A stretch of DNA of 64,000 nt, from positions 87,819 through 151,818 of the forward strand of contig JAUSCZ010000023.1 in the NCBI GenBank assembly GCA_030674475.1, written 5' to 3'. The notes beneath the pieces are model-generated. The model searched no databases, had not been told where the DNA came from, and worked only from the letters and a program-made list of their open reading frames with translations. Positions within the stretch are counted from its first letter, which is position 1, and each line of letters opens with the position of its first letter. A program made the position numbers and the translations under genes. The stretch is from Candidatus Omnitrophota bacterium (lineage in GTDB: Bacteria > Omnitrophota > Gorgyraeia > Gygaellales > UBA12090). Of the stretch, positions 5,517 to 62,049 are shown piece after piece.

Positions 5517-6419
5517 ATGCCCCCTAAGTCTAAAAAGCTAATCTCTCTTATCCTCTGCTTCTTACTTATCTTCCAGCAGACAGGCTTTGCCCAGACCGTC
5601 AGCCTTAACCTGGCTCACTATCTTAGTCAGGCCTCTTCGCCGGTAATCTCTGATACCTTCCGTCCAATCCACCTGCGCTATATCTCTTACGACAATCTAA
5701 GTAATAATTTTAAACTCCTCTTAGATAAGGGGGACTACTTAAAAGCATCGTCAGGCCGCCAGGATACAAAGTCGTCCGAGCAGGAAGATGATCTTAGTCG
5801 TCAGACGCAAGTTTTGCTGCGATATTTCTTTATCGGCTTAGCCCTGCCCAACAGTGCATTTTGGGTAAACCTTAGACCGGATGCTCCGGATAATATCATT
5901 GATGATGACTTGGCCAAGACCGACATCGGTAAGATACTCTTAGAAGCTGACCTCAACCTTAAGAAAGGCATCTCCAGCTTTACCTCACCCCAAACTCCGG
6001 AAGGCAAGGCCTATTGGGATAAACTTTACCAGAAGGCCGAAGAATTATACGGCACCAGCCAGATAACTATCCCCACCCTAACCCGTCCCTGGATAGTCCC
6101 GGATGAAATAATCTTAAGGGAATCTCCAGACACCAGCGCCTACGTCTACAAAGCCACCCTGAAGGTTATGCTGGAAGAAGACTATCTAGGAAAATCCGAA
6201 ACCCTAAACCCTGAATCCGAAACAAATTCCAATTTAAAAATCCAAAACCAAAAACCCTATGAATTCAAAGACCTAAGATTAAGAGAGCTCAATGAATACT
6301 CTACACAGCTGATCAAAGAGTTGATTATCCCCAAACTTACCCAGGAGATCAACTCTTCCAAGAGATACGCCCCCCCTGAGACAAGTCTATTACTCCTTAA
6401 TCTTAGCCCAGCATTTTAA
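5517..6419 (+). CDS. paralog 2 of the giant-protein family, N-terminal piece truncated by a +1 frameshift in a C7 tract
   Basis: Aligns with residues 1-270 of paralog 1 and paralog 3 up to RYAP. Paralog 1 has gctccccttag where this copy has gcccccccctgag (6370-6376). Confidence 0.55.
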   Translation: MPPKSKKLISLILCFLLIFQQTGFAQTVSLNLAHYLSQASSPVISDTFRPIHLRYISYDNLSNNFKLLLDKGDYLKASSGRQDTKSSEQEDDLSRQTQVLLRYFFIGLALPNSAFWVNLRPDAPDNIIDDDLAKTDIGKILLEADLNLKKGISSFTSPQTPEGKAYWDKLYQKAEELYGTSQITIPTLTRPWIVPDEIILRESPDTSAYVYKATLKVMLEEDYLGKSETLNPESETNSNLKIQNQKPYEFKDLRLRELNEYSTQLIKELIIPKLTQEINSSKRYAPPETSLLLLNLSPAF

Positions 6420-15857: not shown

Positions 15858-15929
15858 ATGAAAGTTTTCCCTTGCGTAAACGCTCGTAAATTTCTGCGAA
15901 ATTTACTTCGCACGCTACGGGATTAATTC

Positions 15930-15982
15930 GCGCATAAACTTATGCCTTCCTGCCTACCGGCAGGCAGGCATAAGTTTAGCGC
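15930..15982 (+). repeat. long imperfect palindrome / stem-loop in the nuoL-nuoM intergenic gap; its core TATGCC-TYCCTGCC-TACCGGCAGG resembles the palindrome inside the heptamer-array element at 59918-60024
   Basis: gcgcataaacttatgcc...ggcataagtttagcgc arms of about 15 bp with a central CCTACCGGCAGG, read directly. Confidence 0.5.
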
Positions 15983-16001
15983 TCATTAAGGAGGCTTAGC
16001 A

Positions 16002-42430: not shown

Positions 42431-42476
42431 GAAACAAAAGGGACGGTTCTATTTTTTAAAGAATAGAATCGTCCCT
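42431..42476 (+). terminator. intrinsic terminator after the zinc-ribbon gene
   Basis: aaagggacggttcta-ttttttaaagaa-tagaatcgtccctttt: about 14-bp stem followed by a T run. Confidence 0.6.
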
Positions 42477-42527
42477 TTTGTTCAAATATCGTTGCCTGGC
42501 ATTATTTCTTGTGATAAGATAAGGCTT

Positions 42528-44252
42528 ATGAACGTGGATATTACCATAAAAATAGCCGGGGAGGCCGGCCAGGGCTTGCAGACTATTGGCCGGCTTCTGG
42601 CTAAGGCGTTTTCCCGGGGAGGCTGGCATGTATTTGCCAATCAGGTTTTGCAATCAAGAATCCGGGGCGGGCACAATTGGTTTCAAGTCCGAGTCTCGGA
42701 TATTAAAATTTTGGCCCCCGCGGAGGTTACTGATATTCTGATTGCCCTGGATAATGAAAGTGTTTATCATACCCGAGAGCTTAGTGAAAATTCGATTACC
42801 ATCTTTGATTCTTCCCTGATTAAATATAATTCCGAAAAGGGATTAATTTTGGATATTCCCTTTGAAAAGACCGCCAAAGAAAGCGGGGGAAATAAGCTGA
42901 TAAGTAATACCGTGGCCCTGGGAGCGGTGTTAGGCCTTCTGGAATACGATATAAATATTTTATTTGGCCTGCTTAAGGAAAGCTTTCAAGAAAAGGATCA
43001 AGGGATTGTTCAGGCTAATATTCAGGCGGCCCAGGCCGGATACAATCTCGCCTACCAAAAGATTAAAGCAAATAAGCTTCCCCGTTTAAACAGGACAAAC
43101 GGCCATCCGAGGATGCTGATTAATGGAAGCGAGACCATAGCTTTAGGGGCCTTGGCCGCCGGATGTAAATTTATCTCAGCTTATCCGATGAGCCCTTCCA
43201 CCGGCATAATGACCTATCTTGCTTCCCAGGCGGAGGAGTTTAAGGTATTAGTGGAGCAGTCCGAGGATGAGATTGCTTCCATAAATCTGGCCTTAGGGGC
43301 TTCTTATGCCGGGGTCCGGGCCATGACCGCTACCAGCGGCGGAGGTTTCGCCCTGATGGTTGAGGGCCTCAGCTTAGCCGGGATGACTGAAACCCCAATA
43401 GTTATTGTGGATGCCCAAAGGCCGGGCCCGGCCACCGGTCTGCCTACCCGGACCGCCCAGGAGGATTTGGAGTATGTAATTTATGCCGGTCACGGTGAAT
43501 CTCCCCGGGCGGTATTGGCTCCTCTAAGCATAGAAGATGCCTTTTATCTGACGGTAAAGGCCTTTAACCTGGCGGATAAATACCAGATACCGGTAATAAT
43601 TTTGAGCGACCAATTATTAGCTGATTCCTATTTAACCGTGGATAGTTTTGATGTTGAAAGCCTAAAGATTGAAAGGCATATCTTAAGCGATGAGGAGTTA
43701 AAGAATATAAAAAACTACAAAAGATACCAAATTACCGATTCGGGAATTTCTCCCCGGGCCTTGCCGGGAAATCCTTACGGCCTGGTGGTGGCGGATAGTG
43801 ATGAACACGATGAAGAGGGCCATATTACCGAGGATGTGGATTATATACGCCCGGAGATGGTCAAGAAAAGAAATCGTAAGACAGCCGGTTTATTGAAAGA
43901 GATGTCCGCGCCGATACAATACGGCCCCCCGGAGGCCAAAAACATAATCATCGGTTGGGGTTCAAGTTACGGCGCGCTTAAAGAAGCGGTGGATATCCTG
44001 AATTCGGAAAAAGAAAAGGTGAGCTTAGCGCATTTTAACCAGGTCTGGCCTTTAAATAAAGAATATTTTGACTTTCTGAATACGGCGGAATTCGTCTGCG
44101 TTGCGGAAAATAATTTCCGCGGGCAATTCGCCCATTTGATTGCCGGGGAAACCGGAAAGGTAATCAAAAACAGGATAAATAAATTTAACGGCTTGCCTTT
44201 TTCGGCGGCAGAGATAGTCCGGGAATATAAGAGGCTAAAAAATAGTTTATAG
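42528..44252 (+). CDS. korA: 2-oxoacid:ferredoxin oxidoreductase, fused gamma-alpha subunit (ORF opens with TTG at 42492; ATG at 42528 preferred)
   Basis: N-terminal gamma-like domain (IKIAGEAGQGLQT), alpha domain (SETIALGALAAGCKFISAYPMSPST), C-terminal domain III; 574 aa from 42528. Confidence 0.8.
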   Translation: MNVDITIKIAGEAGQGLQTIGRLLAKAFSRGGWHVFANQVLQSRIRGGHNWFQVRVSDIKILAPAEVTDILIALDNESVYHTRELSENSITIFDSSLIKYNSEKGLILDIPFEKTAKESGGNKLISNTVALGAVLGLLEYDINILFGLLKESFQEKDQGIVQANIQAAQAGYNLAYQKIKANKLPRLNRTNGHPRMLINGSETIALGALAAGCKFISAYPMSPSTGIMTYLASQAEEFKVLVEQSEDEIASINLALGASYAGVRAMTATSGGGFALMVEGLSLAGMTETPIVIVDAQRPGPATGLPTRTAQEDLEYVIYAGHGESPRAVLAPLSIEDAFYLTVKAFNLADKYQIPVIILSDQLLADSYLTVDSFDVESLKIERHILSDEELKNIKNYKRYQITDSGISPRALPGNPYGLVVADSDEHDEEGHITEDVDYIRPEMVKKRNRKTAGLLKEMSAPIQYGPPEAKNIIIGWGSSYGALKEAVDILNSEKEKVSLAHFNQVWPLNKEYFDFLNTAEFVCVAENNFRGQFAHLIAGETGKVIKNRINKFNGLPFSAAEIVREYKRLKNSL

Positions 44253-44329
44253 TTTATAGTTGATAGTTTATAGTTAATAGCAAATATAGCTAAAACCCTA
44301 AACCCTAAACCCTAAACCCTAAACTAAAT
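44244..44329 (+). mobile_element. heptamer-array element copy A: (AGTTKAT)x5 - AGCAAATATAGCT - (AAACCCT)x4, filling the korA-korB gap
   Basis: Tandem 7-mers read directly. The korA stop codon lies inside the first array and the korB ATG abuts the last repeat; related copies at 52528-52638 and 59918-60024. Confidence 0.6.
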
Positions 44330-45184
44330 ATGATGGTTGATTTGAACAGTTTTGGAAAATTTGAAACGGCCTGGTGTCCGGGATGCGGAGACTTCGGGAT
44401 TCTGGGGGCGCTCAAAGACGCCTTGGTTAAGCTTGACCTTGAGCCGCATAAAATGGTCCTGGTTTCCGGCATAGGCCAGGCGGCGAAATTGCCCCATTAT
44501 CTTTATAGTAATGTTTTTAACGGCCTGCACGGCCGGGCCATTCCGGCGGCCACCGGCATCAAGATGGCCAACAATAAATTGACGGTGTTAGTTACCTCCG
44601 GTGACGGGGATATCTATGGCGAAGGCGGTAATCATCTTATCCACGCTATCCGCCGGAATATAGATATAACCGTGATAGTGCATAATAATCAGGTGTATGC
44701 CCTCACCCTGGGCCAGGCTTCTCCCACCAGTGACTTAGGCTATGTAACCAGGGTCCAGCCGCGCGGGGTGATTGATGAGCCGATTCATCCTCTGGCTATG
44801 GCCATAGCTTTGGGCGCAGGTTTCGCGGCCAGGAGTTTTGCCGGGGACAAGGAGCATCTTTCTTTGATGATTCAGGAGGGGGTAAAATACCGGGGTTTGG
44901 CCATTATTGATGTCTTGCAGTGGTGCGTTACCTTTAATAAAAAAAATAATTTTGCCTGGTATAAAAAACGGGTTTATAAATTAGGGCCGGAGTATGATTC
45001 TTCTGATAAAACTAAGGCCTTAGAAAAATCCCTGGAATGGGGAGATAAAATTCCCCTGGGAATAATCTATAAGAACGGCCGACCCAGTTTTGAAGAGGCC
45101 TACGGCCTGCCGAAAGACAAGGCCCTGGTAGATGAGGAAATTGAGCCGGCCAAAGTAAATTCAATCTTAAAGGAATTTATTTAG
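44330..45184 (+). CDS. korB: 2-oxoacid:ferredoxin oxidoreductase beta subunit (TPP-binding)
   Basis: CPGCGDFGIL N-terminal motif and TPP-binding GDGD (TSGDGDIYGEGGNH). Confidence 0.85.
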   Translation: MMVDLNSFGKFETAWCPGCGDFGILGALKDALVKLDLEPHKMVLVSGIGQAAKLPHYLYSNVFNGLHGRAIPAATGIKMANNKLTVLVTSGDGDIYGEGGNHLIHAIRRNIDITVIVHNNQVYALTLGQASPTSDLGYVTRVQPRGVIDEPIHPLAMAIALGAGFAARSFAGDKEHLSLMIQEGVKYRGLAIIDVLQWCVTFNKKNNFAWYKKRVYKLGPEYDSSDKTKALEKSLEWGDKIPLGIIYKNGRPSFEEAYGLPKDKALVDEEIEPAKVNSILKEFI

Positions 45185-48226: not shown

Positions 48227-49034
48227 GAAATTAAAAGAGGCCCTCTTATCCTATAAGAAGGTGGTTATTGCTTATTCCGGCGGGGTTGATTCCAGCTTCT
48301 TGCTTAAATGCTGTGTTGATTTTTTAGGTCCAGACCAGACTATCGCGGTAACCGCGGTTTCGCCTACCTATACCCGAAAAGAACTGCAAACCGCCCAGGA
48401 AATTGCCCAAGGGTTAGGGGTTATTCACAAAATTATTCACACCTCGGAAGTAGATGACCCAAATTTCAAGGCCAATCCCCAGAACCGCTGTTACTATTGT
48501 AAGAGCGAACTATTTTCCCTGTTGCAGTCATTAGCCAAAAAAGAGAAGGTGAGCTTTGTCCTGGACGGCACCAATGCCGATGACCTGAAAGACTATCGTC
48601 CGGGAAGCCTGGCTAAGAATGAGTTGGGAGTAAAATCGCCATTGGCTGAGGCGAATTTTACCAAAGAAGAAATCCGTGCTGCCTCTAAGGAATTGGGATT
48701 AGCAACCTGGGACGCGCCCCAGATGTCCTGTCTGGCCTCGCGTTTTGCCTACGGCCAGGAAATAAGATTAGAGGATTTAAGCCGGATTGAAAAAGCGGAA
48801 AATTACATCCGCGCCTTAGGCTTTAAGATGGTGCGCCTGCGGCATTATAAGCTCGCGGATGAAACCCTTTTGGCCCGCCTGGAGGTGGAGGGGGAAGATG
48901 TAGAGAAGGTTGCAAGTTACAAGTTGCAAGTTACAAATAAATTGAAAGAATTGGGATATAATTATATCACGCTGGATTTGGAAGGATATCGAACAGGAAG
49001 CATGAATGAGGGAATAACCGGAGGTAAGATATAA
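48186..49034 (+). CDS. PP-loop ATP pyrophosphatase, LarE-like ATP-dependent sulfur transferase family (COG1606)
   Basis: SGGVDSS PP-loop motif (VVIAYSGGVDSSF), 282 aa; family-typical Cys (QMSCLASRF). Confidence 0.6.
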   Translation: MDAAVEALLRKKLEKLKEALLSYKKVVIAYSGGVDSSFLLKCCVDFLGPDQTIAVTAVSPTYTRKELQTAQEIAQGLGVIHKIIHTSEVDDPNFKANPQNRCYYCKSELFSLLQSLAKKEKVSFVLDGTNADDLKDYRPGSLAKNELGVKSPLAEANFTKEEIRAASKELGLATWDAPQMSCLASRFAYGQEIRLEDLSRIEKAENYIRALGFKMVRLRHYKLADETLLARLEVEGEDVEKVASYKLQVTNKLKELGYNYITLDLEGYRTGSMNEGITGGKI

Positions 49035-52436: not shown

Positions 52437-52527
52437 TAGTAGCTCCTGCCCAAGAAAGCGCTTGCCCAAAACCCCTGTTTTGCCCTTGTTTTTACCCCTT
52501 TTATGTGGTTTACTTTAGGTAGCCGAA

Positions 52528-52638
52528 TTAGTTTATAGCTGATAGTTGATAGTTTAGAGCAAAAGATTAGCGAACTAAATAGAATTTATGTTTGTTTTTT
52601 TGCTATCAACTATCCGCTATCAACTATCAACCAAATAT
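52528..52638 (+). mobile_element. heptamer-array element copy B with terminal inverted heptamer arrays, inserted exactly between the ancestral leader (…CTTTAGGT) and the start codon of giant paralog 3
   Basis: Left array agtttat-agctgat-agttgat-agtttag, right array (reverse complement) gctatca-actatcc-gctatca-actatca. The flanking 52464-52524 aligns with 1424-1476 upstream of paralog 1, where the ATG follows immediately. Confidence 0.65.
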
Positions 52639-55600
52639 ATGCCTTTACGCCTAACCAAATTCCTATCTCTGTTTCTCTCTTTCTGCCTTATCCTTGAGCA
52701 GAGCGTCTTTGCTCAAAGCATAGACCTTTCCCATTACTTTGCCAACTCTGGCAAACCTATTATCCAGAGCGATAAATTTCGGCCCTTACACCTAAGGTAT
52801 CTAGGCTATGATAACTTGAGTCAGGACTTTAAGCTACTTTTAGATAAGGGAGATACTAAGAAGGAGGACTTAGAGAACAAAGCCTACATAGAAGAAAACA
52901 CCCAAACCCTGCTCAAATACTTCTTCATCGGATTAAGCCTGCCTAATGATAAGTTTTGGGTTAACCTAAGGCCGGATGCCTCGGAGAATATCATAGATGA
53001 CGACTTAGCCAAGACAGATATCGGCAGGATTATGCTGGAAGCTGATGTCCAGCTAAAGAAGGATACTGCAAGCTATACCTCACCCCAGGCCAAAGAAGGC
53101 CGGGAATACTGGGATAAGCTGTATAAGAAAGCAGAAGAGCTATTCGGAACCGAAAACATCACCATCCCCACCCTAACTAGGCCATGGATTGTCCCGGACG
53201 AGATTATTTTAAGAGAATCTCCGGATAACAGCGCCTACATTTACAAAGCTACCCTCAAGGTGATGTTGGAAGAGGACTACCTAAAAACCAGCAACCAGCC
53301 CGTCCTGGCAAAGCGAAGCGGGCCAGGGAAACCAGTAACCAGTAACCAGGTATATTCTTTTAGTGACCCCAGGCTAAAAGAGCTTAATCAATATTCTACC
53401 CAGCTAATCAAGGAAACCATAATCCCCAAGCTCACCCAGGAGATCAACTCATCCAGGAGATACGCTCCCCTAAGACAAGTCTATTACTCTCTCATCTTAG
53501 CCCAGCACTTTAAACGGAAGTTTGCCAAGCAGCCCTCGGGGCAGGCAGGAGAAAATCCCTATGTTAAGCTGATTGACTCCTGTAACCTTACCAACCTAAC
53601 CTCCAAAGAACCCTGGGATAAACTTACCTGCTTCCAAGGCTATCAGAAATCCTTTCAGCAGGGAGAATACAATATTCAAGAGCCGGTGTATACGCCTACG
53701 GGGCAGGCAATAAGAAGCTATTTTAGTGGGGGGCAGCTTCTAACAAATATTCTCAGAGTAACAACGGTAACCCCGGGGTTTGGACCACCTTCTATTTCAG
53801 GCAGCATCCATTTGAAAAAAATTGACTATTCTGTTTCGCCGGTTGCCAAAGGGGACGTAAGCCTTTTGACTGGGTTAAGGTCAAGCTCAGCGATTGAGGA
53901 AAGAAATAATGCGTCTTTATTATCTATGGGAAACTCGACCTTGAAAGGAAGGCCAACGAGAATAATGCTTTCTTTCTTTTCTAACGTTCGTGATAAATCT
54001 AAGCTTGACAATCCATTGGGAGTCGCAGTCTTAGGTGGTACTTTGAAACAGCAACTTAAGGATACTGTCCATATTGTTATGGCACATCATCTGATTGATG
54101 GCGGAGTAGAAGGAATCATCGAAAAAATAAAGATTGAGCATCCGGAAATATTAGGATTATCTCTCGGCTTTGGTTCTTTGCAACAACTGATTACTGTTAT
54201 GCAATATATTCGTTCATTGCCAGCCGCGGAAAGACCCATTGTTGCTTTAGGTAATGTTGTAGCGACTTATAACACAGAATTTTTTCTGAAGCAATACCCG
54301 GAGGTTTTTATTTGTGCAGGGCAAGGTGAAATGGCAATAGTCGATCTCGTCAAATATCGCAGAGGCGAAATAAAGAAAAATGAAATACATGATGTTGTGT
54401 ATATGAATGATGGTCAGATTATTGCAAATCCAAGGAGTCAGTCATTTCTCGTAGATATGGGAACGCCTATGACAGACTTTTTGCCCGATGTAGTAAAATC
54501 CGGGGGTGTTGTTTATATGGAGACCTCGCGCGGCTGTCCTTTTAATTGTACGATATGCGCGCGCAGACCTTTTTTGGGCATAGGTTGGAAAGGCAGGAAT
54601 TTAGATAATATTATTGGCGATATGGAGAAGGCGGCTAACTTGGGCGTCAAATTTATTAACTTTGTTGATGAAGATCTATTTGCTGGCGGTATGAAAAGGG
54701 TGATTCGTTTTGCTCAAATGATTCATGAGGCAAGAAAAGCAGGACGGATTCCTGATGATCTTATTTTTGGTACATCGGTAAGCGTAAGGAATATTTACAG
54801 AATAAATGATTCATTAGAAAATAATCTAAAAAGAAAGCAAGCCTTGGAATTATTGAAAGAGGCCGGCCTTACAGTTCTTTTCATAGGGATTGAATCTGGT
54901 TCGCCAAAGCAACTCGAGCGCTATGGTAAGGCTGCAACCATCAAAGAGAACGAGGAAGCCATTAGGATTATTGAGGATTGTGGAATATGGACTATCCCGG
55001 GTTTTATTATGCTGGATCCGCTTGTGACAATAGAGGAGATCAGGGAGAATATTGATTTTTTAAGACGAACAGGGATGGATGCCCGGATTACGTATCCTTT
55101 AAAGACATATATCCCAATGATAGGAAGCTCTTACACTCAAAAATTAATTGAAGAAGGTTTAGTTTATTCAGTCTCCTATATTCCTGATCGGTTAGCATAC
55201 GAATATTCATTTAGAGAAAAAAGAGTCGCAGATATCTTAAAAAGAATAAAAGATTGGGAAGAAAGCCAAGCAATGTTTTTCTGGGATCTAAAAATTATTT
55301 TTCGTTCCTCGCGTTTTGGTGAATTAAGCCGGGATAAACAAGAATTGGTTAGGACATTAGTTGATAAACAAACCAAGATTTTATTAGATTATTTGGATGA
55401 AATGGTTAATCTAAGCTTGAGCGAAATAGAACAAAAAGAAGTTTTTCAGAGAATATCTTTTAAGTTTGGCGTCCGCTTGATTAACGATATGTTGGAGGCC
55501 TTGCAGTACGTGGAAAATGGTTATTTGCCGCTTGGAGACAAAGAATTCAGAAGTATTATACAGAAAAGTATTATTCGGGAGATTTTGCGGTTATACTTTA

Positions 55601-57364: not shown

Positions 57365-58291
57365 ATGCTGAATAGCAATAATTATATTGGCAAAATCAGG
57401 GAAATGCTGGAAAAAACCGGCTGGGGGCAAGCTCAATTTGCCCAGGAGCTGGGCGTAACTTTTGCCACAGTTAACCGCTGGCTCAACGGCCACCACAGGC
57501 CGCATTTGAGCCAGATACGCCAGATTGAGAGGTTACATAAAAACATTATCGGAATCATCCCGGTAACCAAGCAAGAAATGGAGCAGATTATTTTACAGTT
57601 GAAGGCCAAGATAAAGCAGTATCCGGATATTAAGAAAATCTTGCGGGATGATACAACATCCGAGGAGTTTCTGTTGGAGTTGACCTATAATTCCGACGCC
57701 ATTGAGGGGAATACATTAACTAAGAAAGAGACGGAAACAGTTATCTTCAATAACGCCTCTATCAAGGATAAAAGCTTAATTGAACATCTGGAGGCGGTAA
57801 ATCATGCGGTGATCCTGAAGGATATTTTTTCGGGGAAGATTGGCTGCCCGGTTGATGAAGAGCTGATAAAAAAGACGCATAAGATATTGATGCAGGGCAT
57901 CCGGGATGACGCCGGCGAATACGCCAGCCATCAGAGGGCAATCCGGGGGGTGGATTTGATCCTGCCGTCCCCCGATGATATTGCCGGGGAAATGAAGTTA
58001 TTTTTAAGCAAAGTTAATGACTTCCCGCCTCGACCGATTGAGCATATTGCCAGGATGCACGCGGATTTTGAGGCGATTCATCCTTTCGGCGACGGCAATG
58101 GCCGCGTAGGACGGCTGATTATGATTGTTCAGTTAATTCATTGTGGTTTTGCTCCCTGTATCATTAGCGTTAATGAAAAAGCCCGGTATTATGAATCCCT
58201 AGAATATGTCCAAAAAAAGTCTGAAACGCATCTTGTGTGTTTCCTGGCTGAAGCGGTATTGAAGGGCTATGAGTTAATTAGTTCTCACTGA
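57365..58291 (+). CDS. Fic-family protein with N-terminal Xre-type HTH
   Basis: HTH (GQAQFAQELGVTFATVNRWLNG) and Fic motif HPFGDGNGRVGR. Confidence 0.8.
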   Translation: MLNSNNYIGKIREMLEKTGWGQAQFAQELGVTFATVNRWLNGHHRPHLSQIRQIERLHKNIIGIIPVTKQEMEQIILQLKAKIKQYPDIKKILRDDTTSEEFLLELTYNSDAIEGNTLTKKETETVIFNNASIKDKSLIEHLEAVNHAVILKDIFSGKIGCPVDEELIKKTHKILMQGIRDDAGEYASHQRAIRGVDLILPSPDDIAGEMKLFLSKVNDFPPRPIEHIARMHADFEAIHPFGDGNGRVGRLIMIVQLIHCGFAPCIISVNEKARYYESLEYVQKKSETHLVCFLAEAVLKGYELISSH

Positions 58292-58450
58292 AAAACTCTC
58301 GTTTTTCAGTGAGAACTAATTCCAAAGGGGCTCACGCCCCTATGGCGTTCGTTCCGACTCCGTCGGAACTCACTGTTACCCCTTAAGGGGGTTGCCTGCA
58401 ACCCCCTTAAAATCCCCCAGTAGTTACCACTTTTTCAGTGGTAACTAATT
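58279..58450 (+). other. cluster of five consecutive perfect stem-loops bounded by direct repeats TTTTTCAGTGRKAACTAATT (58302-58321 and 58431-58450); candidate structured RNA or REP/MITE-like insertion
   Basis: Five stems read directly: a 17-bp stem covering the Fic stop; aggggc-tcac-gcccct; gttccgac-tcc-gtcggaac; ttaagggggttg-cctg-caacccccttaa; agttaccact-ttttc-agtggtaact. Confidence 0.5.
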
Positions 58451-58469: not shown

Positions 58470-59171
58470 ATGGTTAAGACCCTGGTCTTTATCCACGGCT
58501 GGGCCAGCGCGCCGGAGATCTGGCAGAGGCAGAGGGAATATTTTGCCAAAGATTATGAGGTTGTCCTGCCGGATATAAGTCCGGCCCGGGATATTCAAGA
58601 AGCGGCAGGCCTGCTCAAGGATGCAATTAAAGACAGGAAGGATTTTGTCCTGATTGGCTGGTCTCTGGGCTGGATGGTGATTTTAGAAGCGCTCAAGAGT
58701 TTATCCTTAAAGCCTAAGGCCGTGGTGGCGGTAAATTCTACGCCTAATTTTTGCTCTGACGAATATCTGGAGACAGGTTTTACCCAAACCCATCTGAATA
58801 AGATGATAAGGGATTGTAAGCGCGATCCCCAAAAGACCAGGGAGAATTTTTATAAAGGACTCCTTACAGAGAGCGGAAAGAGCATGGCCAGCAGTTTTCA
58901 GTTTAAAAACATAGATTATAGCAAGCTGATTTATGGCTTGTCCATGCTTAAGGATGCTAATTACCGGGATTTTATCCGGGCTATAGATATCCCGGCGCTG
59001 ATTATTACCGGGGCCAGGGATACTATTTGTGTTCCTCAGGTATCCGAATATATGCGTCAGAGGATTAAGCAGTCGGAATTAAAGGTTTTTGACTGTGGGC
59101 ACTTGCCGTTTCTGGATAAGGCTGAGGAATTTAATTTCGCGATAGCTGATTTTATTAGAAAGTTAAAATGA
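58470..59171 (+). CDS. bioH: alpha/beta hydrolase, BioH-like pimeloyl-ACP methyl ester esterase (ORF track starts at TTG 58449)
   Basis: VFIHGW N-terminal motif, nucleophile elbow GWSLG, C-terminal His in CGHLPF; adjacent and coupled to bioC. Confidence 0.55.
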   Translation: MVKTLVFIHGWASAPEIWQRQREYFAKDYEVVLPDISPARDIQEAAGLLKDAIKDRKDFVLIGWSLGWMVILEALKSLSLKPKAVVAVNSTPNFCSDEYLETGFTQTHLNKMIRDCKRDPQKTRENFYKGLLTESGKSMASSFQFKNIDYSKLIYGLSMLKDANYRDFIRAIDIPALIITGARDTICVPQVSEYMRQRIKQSELKVFDCGHLPFLDKAEEFNFAIADFIRKLK

Positions 59172-59929
59172 TTTCCACTCAAAAAATAAGAGATAATTTT
59201 TCCCGCAGCGCGATACATTATGAGAAATACGCGGATATTCAGGCCAAGCTGGCCCAAGAACTACTGGAAGAGGTAATCGGAGCAGGATATACAGCGAATG
59301 AGGTCTTGGACATTGGATGCGGAACCGGATGGCTATTGGGTGAGCTAAAGAGATTTCTGCCCCAAAGCCGGCTCTGGGGTTTGGATATCAGCCTGGCAAT
59401 GGCGCGTAAGACAAAAGCAAAGATTGAAGAGGTGTTGACCGCGGATGCCGCCTTTTTGCCGTTTAAGGATAAGGCCTTGGACCTGGTTTTATCCAATGCC
59501 GTTTATCAATGGGTGCCGGATTTGGAGGCGGCCTTTAAAGAGGCGCGTAGGATTCTTAAATCCGGCGGCTGTTTTATGTTTAATTGCTTTGGGGCCAAGA
59601 CCTTGCGGGAACTGCGCCAGTGTTTTGGGATAGAGGAAACCTTTCTTCCTCGGGCGGATTTTATAAGAGAGGCGTTGGAGAGGGCAGGGTTTTCCTGCCC
59701 GGAGTTTAAGGTCAGGGAGTGCAACCGGCATTTTGATAATTTAGCCGATATCTTAAGCTGGCTGAAATATATCGGGGTAAACCGGATTAATCAGCATCAG
59801 GGGTTTTTAACCCCGTCCCGGCTGGCTAAGGCCGACCATTTCTATCGCAGTAACTTTCGCGGTAACGGCCAGGTCTATGCCACCTTTGAGGTCATCAGCG
59901 TAAAAGCAATAAAAGCAGTTGATAGTTGA
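59168..59929 (+). CDS. bioC: malonyl-ACP O-methyltransferase
   Basis: SAM-binding motif LDIGCGTGW, about 250 aa, N-terminal YEKYADIQ typical of BioC; the stop codon lies inside element copy C. Confidence 0.6.
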   Translation: MISTQKIRDNFSRSAIHYEKYADIQAKLAQELLEEVIGAGYTANEVLDIGCGTGWLLGELKRFLPQSRLWGLDISLAMARKTKAKIEEVLTADAAFLPFKDKALDLVLSNAVYQWVPDLEAAFKEARRILKSGGCFMFNCFGAKTLRELRQCFGIEETFLPRADFIREALERAGFSCPEFKVRECNRHFDNLADILSWLKYIGVNRINQHQGFLTPSRLAKADHFYRSNFRGNGQVYATFEVISVKAIKAVDS

Positions 59930-60024
59930 TAGTGTATGCCTGCCTGCCGGCAGGGTTTATAGCAAATAAATTAAAACTGTTTATCAATGAGCTATAAACT
60001 ATCAACCATAAACCATAAACTAAA
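59918..60024 (+). mobile_element. heptamer-array element copy C (GTTGATAGTTGATAGT - palindrome CCTGCCGGCAGG - …AAACTAT CAACCAT AAACCAT AAACTAA) between bioC and bioDA
   Basis: Read directly; provides the bioC stop codon and abuts the bioDA ATG with no SD. Confidence 0.6.
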
Positions 60025-62049
60025 ATGTCTAATTCTATATTTATCACCGCAACCGATACCGGAGCCGGGAAAACCATTATTTCCTGCGCCATTGGCCTGG
60101 CCTTGCAAAAAAAAGGTATTGATGTTGGATATATGAAACCATTTCAATGCTCCGGCGATGACACGGATTTTGTGATTAAGACCTTAGGTATTCAAGACGA
60201 TAAAAATTTGGTTAATCCTTATTACGCGAAAGAGCCGCTTGCTCCCTATGTCGCCTTTAAAAGGGAAAAAATAAGGATCAATTTAGATAAAGTCTTTTCC
60301 GCGTATCATAAGTTAAAAAAAAGACACGAATTCCTTATCATTGAAGGCGCCGGCGGGCTGTTAGTTCCCTTGCGAGAAAATTATCTGGTTGCGGATTTGA
60401 TCCGGGACCTGGATGTCCCGGCGCTCATTGTGGCCAGGGCAGGCTTAGGGACATTGAATCATACTTTGCTTACCCAAAGATACGCCCTGGATTACGGGGT
60501 TAAGGTTAAAGGCGTAATCATTAATAATTATCAAGGAAAGACTGCCGCGGAAAAGACCAATCCCAATGTCTTAAAGGAATTCCTGGATGTGCCTATTTTA
60601 GGAATAGTTCCTTGGTTGAAAAATGTTAAGTCTAAAGATGGCTTGAGGAGGCTGGGGAAAATAGCCGGGGAAAATATAGATTTAAAGACTTTACTAAAAA
60701 CAGAAAAGCCCCTCACCCGGCAGTTGATTAAGCGGGATAAGGATTTCCTCTGGCATCCTTTTACCCAGATGCGGGATTGGCTTAAGGATGAGCCTTTAAT
60801 TATTGATGAGGCCAAGGGGAATTATTTGAAAGATACTAACGGCAAATGGTATTTAGACGGAGTCTCCAGCCTTTGGGTGAATGTTCACGGCCACCGCAGA
60901 AGAGAGATAGACATAGCCATAAATAGACAACTGAATAAGGTGGCCCATAGCACATTGTTGGGATTAAGCAATGTGCCTTCTATTGAATTGGCCCAGCGGC
61001 TGGTAGAGATTGCCCCCAAAGGCCTGATCAAGGTTTTTTATTCCGACAGCGGCTCAACCGCGGTGGAGATTGCCTTGAAGATGGCTTATCAATATTGGCA
61101 GTATCTGGATAAGGCTAAAACAAGATTTATTCATTTGGAGAACGCCTATCATGGAGATACCATAGGCTCGGTGAGTGTGGGCGGGATGGATTTGTTTCAT
61201 AAGACCTACAAGGGTCTGCTTTTTGAGAGCTATAAGGCGGATTCGCCTTATTGCTACCGCTGTCCCAAGGGTAAAAATTATCCTGGGTGTAATTTTGAGT
61301 GTCTGGATAGGCTAAGAGATATTTTAAGACAACATCATTCTTCAACTGCCGCGCTTATAGTTGAGCCTTTAGTCCAGGCCGCCGGCGGTATCATTGTTTG
61401 GCCTGAAGGCGTATATAGGAAGATGCGCGAGCTTTGCCATAAGCATAATGTGCTTTTGATTGCCGATGAGGTGGCCGTAGGTTTTGGGAGGACTGGCTAT
61501 ATATTTGCCTCTGAGACTGAAGGTGTAACGCCGGATATCTTGTGCTTAGCCAAGGGGATTACCGGGGGGTATCTGCCTTTAGCCGCCACCCTGACTACCC
61601 AAAAGATATTTGATGCCTTTTCGGGAGAGTATAAGGAACAAAAGACTTTTTTTCACGGACACACCTATACCGGAAATCCCCTGGCCTGCGCCGCTGCCTT
61701 GGCCAATTTAGGGCTTTTTAAAAAAGAAAAAACCCTCCAAAAACTTCAGCCCAAGATTAAATTTTTAGGAAAAGAATTAGAGAAGTTTAAGAAATTGGAG
61801 CATATCGGAGACATCCGCCAGAAGGGTTTTATGGTGGGAATTGAACTGGTAAAAAATAAAGGAACCAAAGAGCCGTATTCCTGGGAAGAAAGGATTGGGA
61901 TAAAGATTTGCCAAAAGGCCAGGGAATATGGGGTCATCCTGCGCCCCTTAGGCAATGTCATTGTCCTTATGCCGCCTTTGGCGATAAGCAAAGAGGAATT
62001 GAAACAGCTTGTTGATGCCGCCTATAAGGCGATAAGTTTTGTGCAATGA
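60025..62049 (+). CDS. bioDA: bifunctional dethiobiotin synthetase / adenosylmethionine-8-amino-7-oxononanoate aminotransferase fusion (BioD-BioA)
   Basis: N-terminal BioD P-loop FITATDTGAGKT and EGAGGLLVP. C-terminal class-III aminotransferase motifs (DEVAVGFGRTG, HGHTYTGNPLACAAALA). 674 aa, a single ORF. Confidence 0.8.
   Translation: MSNSIFITATDTGAGKTIISCAIGLALQKKGIDVGYMKPFQCSGDDTDFVIKTLGIQDDKNLVNPYYAKEPLAPYVAFKREKIRINLDKVFSAYHKLKKRHEFLIIEGAGGLLVPLRENYLVADLIRDLDVPALIVARAGLGTLNHTLLTQRYALDYGVKVKGVIINNYQGKTAAEKTNPNVLKEFLDVPILGIVPWLKNVKSKDGLRRLGKIAGENIDLKTLLKTEKPLTRQLIKRDKDFLWHPFTQMRDWLKDEPLIIDEAKGNYLKDTNGKWYLDGVSSLWVNVHGHRRREIDIAINRQLNKVAHSTLLGLSNVPSIELAQRLVEIAPKGLIKVFYSDSGSTAVEIALKMAYQYWQYLDKAKTRFIHLENAYHGDTIGSVSVGGMDLFHKTYKGLLFESYKADSPYCYRCPKGKNYPGCNFECLDRLRDILRQHHSSTAALIVEPLVQAAGGIIVWPEGVYRKMRELCHKHNVLLIADEVAVGFGRTGYIFASETEGVTPDILCLAKGITGGYLPLAATLTTQKIFDAFSGEYKEQKTFFHGHTYTGNPLACAAALANLGLFKKEKTLQKLQPKIKFLGKELEKFKKLEHIGDIRQKGFMVGIELVKNKGTKEPYSWEERIGIKICQKAREYGVILRPLGNVIVLMPPLAISKEELKQLVDAAYKAISFVQ

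Follow-up and report, generated by a model that had tools for sequence, protein, structure and literature searches.

Heptanucleotide arrays as imperfect-palindrome spacers before Shine-Dalgarno-less start codons in Candidatus Omnitrophota

The stretch of DNA considered here (hereafter the window: 64,000 nt of a Candidatus Omnitrophota genome, contig JAUSCZ010000023.1, positions 87,819 to 151,818) carries three elements of 86–112 nt in gaps between its genes, located at 44244-44329 (element A), 52530-52638 (element B) and 59917-60024 (element C). All three follow a common plan, with a 5' array of (AGTTKAT)n heptamers, an apical stem of the form AGCAAA…GCT, and a 3' array free of G (CTAAACC / ATMAACY) that ends 0–6 nt before the next ATG (0 nt for A, including its terminal AAACTAAAT, 6 nt for B and 3 nt for C). 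Such elements are of a known and poorly understood kind; what is new is the repeat unit, the host phylum and the palindromic architecture that runs from stop to start codon, and they represent neither a demonstrated mobile element nor a new category. We give a probability of about one half to the reading that they are heptanucleotide arrays of the class comprising the short tandemly repeated repetitive (STRR) sequences, the long simple sequence repeats (LSSRs) of Mrazek and the TAACTGA repeats, here arranged as an imperfect-palindrome spacer that would serve as a leader for initiation independent of the Shine-Dalgarno (SD) sequence and as a coupling hairpin.

All genes flanking the three elements lie on the + strand, and Pfam matches agree with the identities proposed for them in an earlier note on this DNA (korA/korB, a giant paralog, bioC and bioDA), the best named homologues of their proteins belonging to Candidatus Omnitrophica/Omnitrophota. 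Element A separates a gene for the alpha subunit of a 2-oxoacid:ferredoxin oxidoreductase (korA-like, 42492-44252, POR/POR_N) from that for the beta subunit (korB-like, 44330-45184, TPP_enzyme_C/PFO_beta_C). Near element B are an aminotransferase gene and the gene of a 1200-aa radical-SAM/B12-binding giant protein (paralog 3), and the neighbours of element C encode a BioH-like hydrolase, a BioC-like methyltransferase (59168-59929) and a BioD-BioA fusion (60025-62049). The only database protein 100% identical to this fusion is a 441-aa entry covering BioA alone (P0165, NCBI Omnitrophota), and in the annotation deposited for that genome the fusion gene seems to be divided or cut short.

The 5' arm of element A (44244-44278, + strand) consists of five heptamers (AGTTTAT/AGTTTAT/AGTTGAT/AGTTTAT/AGTTAAT), and the korA-like stop codon TAG (44250-44252) straddles the first two. 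It is followed by an apical stem-loop (44279-44292, with AGCAAATATAGCT at 44279-44291 and a predicted UAGC / GCUA stem), and by a G-free 3' arm (44293-44329) of 4.6 AAACCCT units (44293-44324) and AAACTAAAT, directly adjoined by the korB-like ATG at 44330. In sequence, these AAACCCT units are identical to the (CCCTAAA)n repeat of plant telomeres and could be mistaken for eukaryotic contamination; a contig of the Logan assembly (L001) terminates inside them, at window position 44295. In element B (+ strand), the 5' arm (52530-52564) reads AGTTTAT AGCTGAT AGTTGAT AGTTTAG AGCAAAA and is 89% identical to that of A across 35 nt, the loop region (52565-52596) contains a spurious in-frame ATG at 52588, and the 3' arm (52597-52638) consists of TTTTTGCTATCAACTATCCGCTATCAACTATCAACC then AAATAT, has no G in its last 20 nt and is followed by the ATG at 52639. 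The inverted array of this element is GCTATCAACTATCCGCTATCAACTATCAACC (52602-52632), and its two arms are 92% complementary over 24 nt.

Element C (+ strand) begins with three units (59917-59937, AGTTGAT AGTTGAT AGTGTAT), the second of which includes the bioC-like stop codon TGA (59927-59929). The inner part (59955-59993) runs from GTTTAT AGCAAAT (59955-59967) to GAGCT, with an AGC/GCU apical stem and a variable loop, and the G-free 3' arm (59994-60024, ATAAACT ATCAACC ATAAACC ATAAACT AAA) adjoins the ATG of the bioD-bioA fusion at 60025. Nested between the 5' arm and the inner part is a GC-rich mini-palindrome (59938-59954) ending in CCTGCCGGCAGG at 59943-59954, the palindrome that the earlier note had pointed out. 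This 16-nt palindrome looks like a separate small insert, and a TATGCCTKCCTGCC..GGCAGG core is common to it and to a hairpin at 15941-15972 in the gap between nuoL and nuoM.

The view that the three copies form one family of a single design, filling gaps between co-oriented genes, was thus borne out by reading each of them in the window. The string AGTTKATAGTTKAT, with at most 2 mismatches, is found 17 times in the 64 kb for 2.2 expected, a number that 0 of 100 shuffles reach, and 16 of these 17 matches fall within the elements. Tandem Repeats Finder (TRF) reports two arrays per element (5.6 + 4.6 copies in A, 3.7 + 4.1 in B, 2.4 + 3.9 in C), and no other intergenic period-7 array of at least 3 units in the 64 kb. 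Two parts of the original description require rewording. An AGCAAAWA core is indeed present, not as a separate motif but as the 5' side of the apical pairing, which is AGCAAA/TTTGCT or AGC/GCU. Likewise, the three types of right-end array do occur, but AAACCCT, AACCATA and ATAAACC are variants of a single unit, ATMAACY, the reverse complement of AGTTKAT, so that all three copies are imperfect palindromes. The loops have no sequence relation to one another.

All three elements are intergenic, and only the last 2-4 codons of an upstream gene reach into an array, the (AGTTKAT)n arm having stop codons in every frame; as had been proposed, the korA-like and bioC-like genes both end inside 5' arrays. 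The downstream starts also proved devoid of an SD sequence: none of the three has an SD core of at least 4 nt, and none has a single G between -20 and -1. By the criterion of MacGregor, an SD core is present at 17 of the 49 candidate starts of the window (35%), and only four starts lack any G between -20 and -1, three of them being those adjacent to the elements. For the giant paralog 3, the mechanical open reading frame (ORF) start at 52588 sits in the loop of element B, and comparison with the paralogs places the real start at the ATG 52639. Upstream of all giant-gene paralogs and orthologs, alignment reveals a conserved block (52447-52523, + strand, with a promoter-like TTGTTT-N17-TTTACT). 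Element B lies between this block and the ATG, and probably makes up nearly the entire 5' untranslated region (UTR) of paralog 3. In giant paralog 1 (1400-1479), the ATG at 1477 is only 6 nt past the TATACT box, within the same conserved block, and this gene may be translated from a leaderless mRNA.

In the predicted RNA, the 5' array pairs with the 3' array in each element, with minimum free energies of -17.3 kcal/mol for A (z -2.9), -36.1 kcal/mol for B (z -5.3) and -28 kcal/mol for C (z -2.1), and with an apical pairing of AGC/GCU in A and C and of AGCAAAA/UUUUGCU in B. The outer helix of A is predicted to begin at 44243, which puts the korA-like stop 7 nt inside the helix. The geometry is alike in all six elements of the A and C types that were compared: the upstream gene terminates within the 5' strand of the predicted outer helix, its stop being 3-12 nt from the helix edge, and the downstream start begins -1 to 19 nt past the 3' strand. 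Taken alone, start-proximal units show no predicted structure ((AUCAACU)6, (AUAAACU)6 and (CUAAACC)6 each give 0.0 kcal/mol), compared with about -4 kcal/mol for units of the 5' arm. Since the elements fold into hairpins, a role in translational coupling or in mRNA fate, already suggested in the earlier note, is plausible. Searches of the whole window with Rfam 15 at the gathering score returned 0 matches, and no terminator-like signature was found at the three elements, whose stems are followed by AAAUAUG, CAAAUAU and CAUAAACC instead of a U-tract. A scan for promoters and terminators showed no enrichment over shuffles and nothing specific at the elements.

The same junctions were compared in contigs with close homologues of KorB and BioDA (labelled L122 to L141). 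Between korA and korB, the closest lineage (L122-L125, 92% KorB identity) has a short form, AAAAAT AGTTTAT AGCAAATATAGCT AAAACCAT AAACTAT AAACTAAAT ATG, in which the apical sequence of element A is identical, and L129 (81%) has AGTTGAT GGTTGAT AGCTCAT AGTTTAT AGCAAAAAAGCT CTT AAACCAT AAACTAA ATAAG ATG. The number of units differs (5 in the window, 1 in L122 and 4 in L129 for the 5' arm; about 5, 3 and 2 for the 3' arm), and the core AGCAAA..AGCT is retained in all three. Between bioC and bioDA, the architecture of the window recurs in L130/L131 and in L133 with different loops, and with 5'/3' arms of 4/4 units in L131 and 4/6 in L133, for 3/4 in the window; L130 and L131 differ from each other by one single-nucleotide polymorphism in the loop, and the GC-rich palindrome of element C is missing from both.

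Other relatives (L126/L132, L138, L140, L141) carry no element, their stop and start codons overlapping or abutting (ATGGTTGA, ATGTCTAA, ATGA, TAA-T-ATG). As ATGGTTGA is still intact right behind element A in the window, the empty overlapping junction is likely to be the ancestral state. At the site of copy B, the conserved upstream block of the giant genes runs straight into the ATG in paralog 1. In L122 it is followed by 27 nt, in the window by element B, and in L126 by a 125-nt inverted pair of another heptamer (GAAAGTA-type / TACTTTC-type), which folds just as well (-38.2 kcal/mol, z -4.8). A metagenome scan with the AAACTAAATATGATGSTTGATTT junction of element A and korB returned four contigs, all identical to the L122 type. 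The L122-type korA/korB element is in fact the same in 8 independent assemblies, so that its arrays appear stable within the lineage and do not behave as a hypervariable contingency locus, the copy number of phase-variable simple sequence repeats (SSRs) being expected to vary between close strains.

Comparison with orthologous regions that lack the element yielded empty, overlapping or abutting junctions, and the distribution of filled and empty junctions conflicts with the phylogeny. A tree of 7 linked proteins (2515 ungapped positions) has the topology ((window,L122),L126,(L129,L138)), with 100% bootstrap in neighbour joining and informative sites of 52:23:21, and hence the two element-bearing lineages do not group together. 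To account for either junction, one must assume two or more gains, or else a single gain followed by two precise losses. The elements of both filled lineages nevertheless have in common a non-repeat core, AGCAAA..GCT, and a tail, AAACCATAAACTAAAT.

The phenomenon is more general than the earlier note supposed. An exact scan for three consecutive AGTTKAT units in one genome per species (species representatives) returned at least 120 stretches; among the matches listed, to which all counts below refer and which do not include the source genome, 51 are from Bacteroidota, 40 from Cyanobacteria, 7 from Bacillota, 6 from Planctomycetota, 3 from Chloroflexota, 3 from a metagenome-assembled genome (MAG) of Hydrogenedentales, and 10 from others, including one Ignavibacteria MAG. 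An ORF beginning with ATG follows within 60 nt of the AC-rich strand in 50 cases (about half of them within 11 nt), versus 17 cases for the GT-rich strand. For example, one array runs to its start as atcaactatcaact ATG, and a Prevotellaceae MAG has the tail ataaact CCAAACTAAAT ATG, as in the window. When arrays form inverted pairs, the GT-rich arm precedes the AC-rich arm in 35 cases and follows it in 1. Flanking ORFs abut the arms in examples read closely, from Planctomycetaceae (L098), Hydrogenedentales (L008) and Muribaculaceae (L015); the last lies between divergent genes, and the AC-rich strand ends 3-4 nt before the ATG of each.

This polarity extends to arrays of any unit. Considering all 354 period-7 arrays of at least 3 units in these loci, after removal of shadow ORFs, the sense strand of arrays located at most 30 nt before a start has less G than C in 53 cases and more in 3, and that of arrays located just after a stop has more G than C in 91 cases and less in 19, the latter count being helped by the more numerous stop codons of G-containing units. 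Start-proximal arrays with units unrelated to AGTTKAT are G-poor in 32 cases against 4. Arrays of the AGTTKAT family with an inverted partner nearby are a minority in rough pairing counts (28/191; 35 pairs). Outside these loci, an Omnitrophica contig (L139, 3480-3590; WOR_2 RIFOXYC2_FULL_43_9) has an inverted pair of GGGGATT/GGAGATT-type and AATCCCC-type arrays about 70 nt upstream of the korB start, the G-rich arm first and the C-rich arm second, a pair of the same kind as the G-quadruplex-type repeats of Nostoc and Xanthomonas.

How could such arrays work? We infer a leader function, a coupling function and slippage as the mechanism of change. The arrays would expand and contract by slippage in steps of 7 nt, and the G-free 3' arm would be the translation-initiation leader of the downstream gene, an open site for SD-independent (S1-type) binding of the 30S subunit. 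An arm without G has no self-folding, no AUG, GUG or UUG and no SD mimicry, and would therefore offer such an open landing site. In the polycistronic RNA, the 5' arm would pair with this leader. With the stop 3-12 nt inside the stem and the start beyond its 3' strand, a ribosome terminating in the 5' arm would have to melt the stem, and would be released beside the freed start. The downstream gene would in this way stay translationally coupled, as it is likely to have been with the ancestral overlapping stop and start codons. That KorB is one subunit of a two-subunit enzyme, made together with KorA, implies that element A must permit initiation. Indirect evidence for the leader comes from the lack of predicted folding in start-proximal arms alone, from the three starts without G or SD upstream, and from the G-poor polarity before starts across phyla. 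The position of stop and start relative to the helix, the pairing of the arms in all copies, the equally good fold of the L126 pair and the GT-then-AC order of inverted pairs elsewhere favour the hairpin and its coupling role.

Several points weigh against this reading, starting with the fact that, for this uncultured lineage, every functional step is one that we infer. The stem of element A is weak (5-bp helices separated by 2x2 loops), its 3' arm having drifted to CTAAACC, and pairing is therefore not strictly maintained. The arm of element B has no upstream stop, as the preceding gene ends 93 nt before it, so that coupling cannot explain B. Between divergent genes, as in the Muribaculaceae example, each mRNA would have the G-free arm only, and the hairpin cannot be what is active in every case. 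The same operons are expressed by relatives that have no such elements, which makes the elements dispensable. The filled state is patchy on the 7-protein tree with a non-repeat core common to both lineages, a pattern not easily reconciled with simple growth in situ. Finally, the polarity counts come from crude ORF calls (first ATG, at least 150 codons), from arrays that are not independent of each other and from loci picked for one unit type. A broader and more doubtful version of the proposal would see in these elements a modular bridge from stop to start that recurs across phyla, G-rich in the arm that follows the stop and G-free in the arm that precedes the start. It would repeatedly take the place of overlapping junctions, carry a hairpin that the terminating ribosome melts or shunts over to reach the next start, and supply a site of initiation without SD. 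If it were true, Omnitrophota, Planctomycetota, Hydrogenedentota, Bacteroidota and Cyanobacteria having the same design with the same unit would imply a shared property of SD-independent ribosomes or an unknown copying mechanism.

The explanations that compete with a leader and coupling hairpin (a mobile origin, RNA processing or stability, debris filtered by orientation, DNA-binding arrays) are not mutually exclusive with it. The earlier note had likened the elements to miniature inverted-repeat transposable elements (MITEs) or to repetitive extragenic palindromic (REP) sequences and bacterial interspersed mosaic elements (BIMEs), and some features do recall a non-autonomous mobile element, whether a MITE, a palindrome-associated transposable element (PATE) or a REP doublet forming a hairpin (REPIN). 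The copies are built alike and have in common a short non-repeat core, AGCAAA…GCT, which six examples from other phyla, read closely, did not show, and the 5' arms of A and B are closely similar. The junctions need at least two gains at each of two sites if precise losses are set aside, an intact ATGGTTGA stands behind element A as an insertion would leave it, the closest relative L122 is without copy B, and the GC-rich palindrome, which of the three copies only C contains, turns up again between nuoL and nuoM. However, when the six filled junctions are set against the empty ones, there is no consistent direct repeat at the borders that could be a target-site duplication, and, the repeat units apart, nothing in the termini is fixed. 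The conserved terminal inverted repeats (TIRs) and near-identical dispersed copies of a MITE are likewise lacking, as unit numbers vary, loops are unrelated, copies differ by whole units and not by point mutations, and there are only three of them in 64 kb. A MITE would predict presence/absence polymorphism with clean empty sites; the junctions of L126/L132, L138, L140 and L141 are empty, in a pattern at odds with the 7-protein tree, but the filled sites are orthologous and L122 offers no clean empty counterpart of copy B. At copies A and C, the sequences are the same in orthologous genomes, an outcome that the earlier note had itself named as speaking against a mobile family; both lineages are filled at the same two of about 25 junctions, unlikely for independent random insertion, and a different heptamer stands at the copy-B site in L126. 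The arrays are AT-rich and variable in length, in contrast to the GC-rich, fixed and many-copied REP, BIME and REPIN sequences. No gene for a transposase or a REP-associated tyrosine transposase (RAYT) was noticed beside the elements, where none was sought systematically. A mobile origin appears unlikely, and some copying between sites or lineages possible. Growth of the arrays from local seeds (korB's own ATGGTTGAT, or AAACTGATG at bioC/bioDA) was also considered and set aside as unproven, the order of the arms being a misfit to simple expansion.

The remaining alternatives concern what the arrays do, if anything. They could be hairpins for mRNA processing or stability, either RNase III-type sites or stem-loops protecting 3' or 5' ends (compare the R sites of T7 early mRNA, or REP sequences), which would cut the polycistronic RNA into segments or stabilise parts of it, their location beside start codons being secondary. 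Their intercistronic or 5'-UTR placement, the stems of 25-35 bp predicted for B, C and the elements of L126, L131 and L133, and the presence in the window of other strong hairpins in operon gaps, such as that between nuoL and nuoM, would suit this explanation, which we nevertheless hold to be improbable: element A and its L122 version have only weak or short predicted stems (-17.3 kcal/mol, and -7.3 to -10 kcal/mol), most AGTTKAT-family arrays elsewhere have no inverted partner and yet period-7 arrays keep their polarity towards starts, no hairpin would be transcribed between divergent genes, and no U-tract accompanies the stems. Functionless debris, left by a high rate of 7-nt slippage in this clade and persisting where harmless, is quite unlikely as well. 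Perfect heptamer arrays also occur within conserved genes of the clade, at orthologous positions and with different units, genomes without the elements show no visible consequence, and Mrazek 2007, as cited in PMC4679880 and PMC4692102, credits the excess of heptamers to polymerase slippage. Against it stand the non-random orientation of the arrays (53:3 before starts, 91:19 after stops, 35:1 for pair order), an architecture and core kept between lineages about 25% diverged in protein, and a constant copy number across the 8 assemblies; at the very least, selection filters which orientation is tolerated, and this filter is the leader argument itself. Protein-binding arrays acting at the DNA level, similar to iterons or operators (compare the ctx promoter of Vibrio cholerae, with its TTTTGAT heptads), seem very improbable. 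The heptad spacing and palindromic symmetry would suit dimeric binders, and in Nostoc heptamers near the starts of recO and recF are reported to change the response to NtcA and LexA (preprint 10.1101/2022.06.06.494920), but a polarity that follows the sense strand and is set by starts and stops suggests RNA or translation, the units vary widely as the G-poor rule holds, and A and C are internal to operons, where no promoter is evident, the promoter scan being uninformative either way. A Rho-utilisation (rut) site in the C-rich, G-poor arm would be self-defeating directly before a start in the sense direction. This last idea was also rejected because the Cyanobacteria, rich in such arrays, are not known to have Rho.

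Other repeats and palindromes were encountered in the window and in related contigs. A LarE/NAD-synthase-like gene has a heptamer array within its ORF, at the same position in four orthologs and with different units: GTTGCAA/GTTACAA x2 in the window (48905-48936), AGTTACC/AGTTGCC x2.5 in L122 (6941-6975), GTCGCAA x4.3 in L126 (14854-14883) and TCGTCCA x4.7 in L129 (9761-9793). It encodes a variable 10-aa patch (VASYKLQVTN / VTSCQLPVAS / VASRKSQVAS / FVHRPSSIVH) in a protein otherwise 65-86% identical. Further arrays are (AGCTCTC)x4.4 in an MnmA-like gene that in a relative has a degenerate form of the array (L130 8727-8757, L132 17785-17807), (CCGACGC)x3.7 in a BioF-like gene of the class I/II aminotransferases (L129 12754-12779), and runs of AAACCCT-type and AACCAGT-type units inside giant paralogs of the window (6192-6256 and 53286-53349). 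The nuoL-nuoM gap (15858-16001) has 144 nt, versus 12 nt in L126, and two hairpins, with a near-perfect palindrome at 15928-15983 (GCGCATAAACTTATGCCTTCCTGCC TACC GGCAGGCAGGCATAAGTTTAGCGC); the 151-nt region folds at -58.6 kcal/mol (z -6.25) and is followed by a clear SD (AAGGAGG). A palindrome of 25+25 nt, 92% complementary, lies at 42433-42482, in the gap of 587 nt that precedes the korA-like gene. A perfect one of 21+21 nt at 58276-58321 overlaps the end of an ORF (57365-58291), and 135 nt downstream is a third arm that matches it (58431-58450). In the relative that lacks A and C, the otherwise syntenic region contains an AbiEii-family gene, which is located at 18-20 kb of L126 and follows an unannotated ORF (L126 18579-19980 / L132 3152-4553), and a PIN-domain gene, which is located at 7.6-8.2 kb of L126 and follows a 54-aa ORF.

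Knowledge of bacterial heptamer repeats goes back to 1990, work of 2007 showed them to be the most over-represented class of long SSR, and one paper (2015) ties them to SD-less starts. To this picture, the window adds Omnitrophota as host, the palindromic architecture from stop to start, and natural versions of two operon junctions with and without the element. The counts obtained across phyla amount to a simple and falsifiable sense-strand rule. If this rule reflects SD-independent initiation, it would bear on the choice of start sites in Bacteroidota, Cyanobacteria and many uncultured phyla. In practical terms, such arrays break short-read assemblies, and the telomere-like (CCCTAAA)n could raise false flags of contamination. 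A string search of the literature found no bacterial paper on ATCAACT/AGTTGAT arrays and only plant-telomere papers for CCCTAAACCCTAAACCCT, and no report of such repeats in Omnitrophota or of the polarity rule was found in the searchable literature.

Among known systems, the elements resemble MITEs by their size (about 100 bp), inverted ends, non-coding nature and presence/absence differences between relatives, and differ from them by having no target-site duplication, no conserved TIR besides the units, no near-identical copies and no parent transposon in view. With the REP, BIME and REPIN sequences of Enterobacteria and Pseudomonas, they share the condition of extragenic palindromes between co-transcribed genes, forming RNA hairpins that can affect segmental mRNA stability; REPs, unlike the AT-rich elements with variable 7-nt units and no conserved ends described here, are GC-rich, have a fixed sequence and length, occur in hundreds of copies and depend on RAYTs for their mobilisation. 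The STRRs of heterocystous cyanobacteria that Mazel and colleagues are said to have described in 1990 reportedly occupy many loci per genome, fall into several unit families (STRR1-3, with units CCCCAGT, TTGGTCA and CAACAGT) and have served as hybridisation and PCR markers. We know of no description of start-codon polarity or palindromic pairing for STRRs, which are intergenic tandem heptamers as here, with different unit sequences. At the coat-replicase junction of the RNA phage MS2, the downstream start is paired with a sequence that the upstream ribosome unwinds, the stems are unique sequences, and coupling was shown experimentally. The start regions considered here also pair with upstream sequence; in contrast to MS2, the stems are repeat arrays, and coupling is read from their geometry.

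Closer relatives are found among the heptamers themselves, first seen as repeats of Calothrix (Mazel et al. 1990, as cited in PMC4692102) and later singled out, in Mrazek 2007 as cited in PMC4679880 and PMC4692102, as the most over-represented long SSRs, with polymerase slippage to blame. Rehm et al. 2015 (PMC4692102) described G-rich GGGAATC / GGGGA(T/C)T heptamers in Xanthomonas and Nostoc, intergenic and of varying length at the same gene pairs, some of them being convergent inverted pairs capable of forming a stem-loop or cruciform, which were studied as G-quadruplex formers. The elements of the window are similar in being intergenic, in differing in length between relatives and in forming inverted pairs, and differ in that their A/T-rich units cannot form a G-quadruplex. 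In Nostoc, a role in translation has been speculated for the heptamers near or overlapping the starts of recO and recF (10.1101/2022.06.06.494920). The nearest parallel is that of the TAACTGA repeats (MacGregor 2015, PMC4679880), with 169 sets in the orange Guaymas 'Maribeggiatoa', mostly forward and ending about 1 nt before SD-less starts, and others in Cyanobacteria and Bacteroidetes; their RNA was predicted to be unstructured, and binding of S1, Csp or CsrA was proposed, with no experiment in that paper and no experimental follow-up found in the searchable literature. Both kinds consist of tandem 7-nt units that are intergenic, with forward sets near SD-less starts, in phyla enriched alike, and some TAACTGA sets also overlap the end of the upstream ORF. 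The elements of the window have the forward orientation towards an SD-less start and a repeat RNA free of self-structure that characterise TAACTGA arrays, together with the head-to-tail 7-nt units, intergenic location and unit-step differences between relatives that characterise heptanucleotide LSSRs and STRRs as a class. They differ from TAACTGA repeats in their units (ATMAACY/CTAAACC in the 3' arm, AGTTKAT in the 5' arm), in their host, Candidatus Omnitrophota, in their inverted pairs able to form a hairpin spanning the gap (the BOGUAY genome has only one 'indirect repeat', PMC4679880), and in the existence of orthologous empty junctions with overlapping stop and start codons. As the unit is not TAACTGA, the elements belong to the same class and lie outside that named family.

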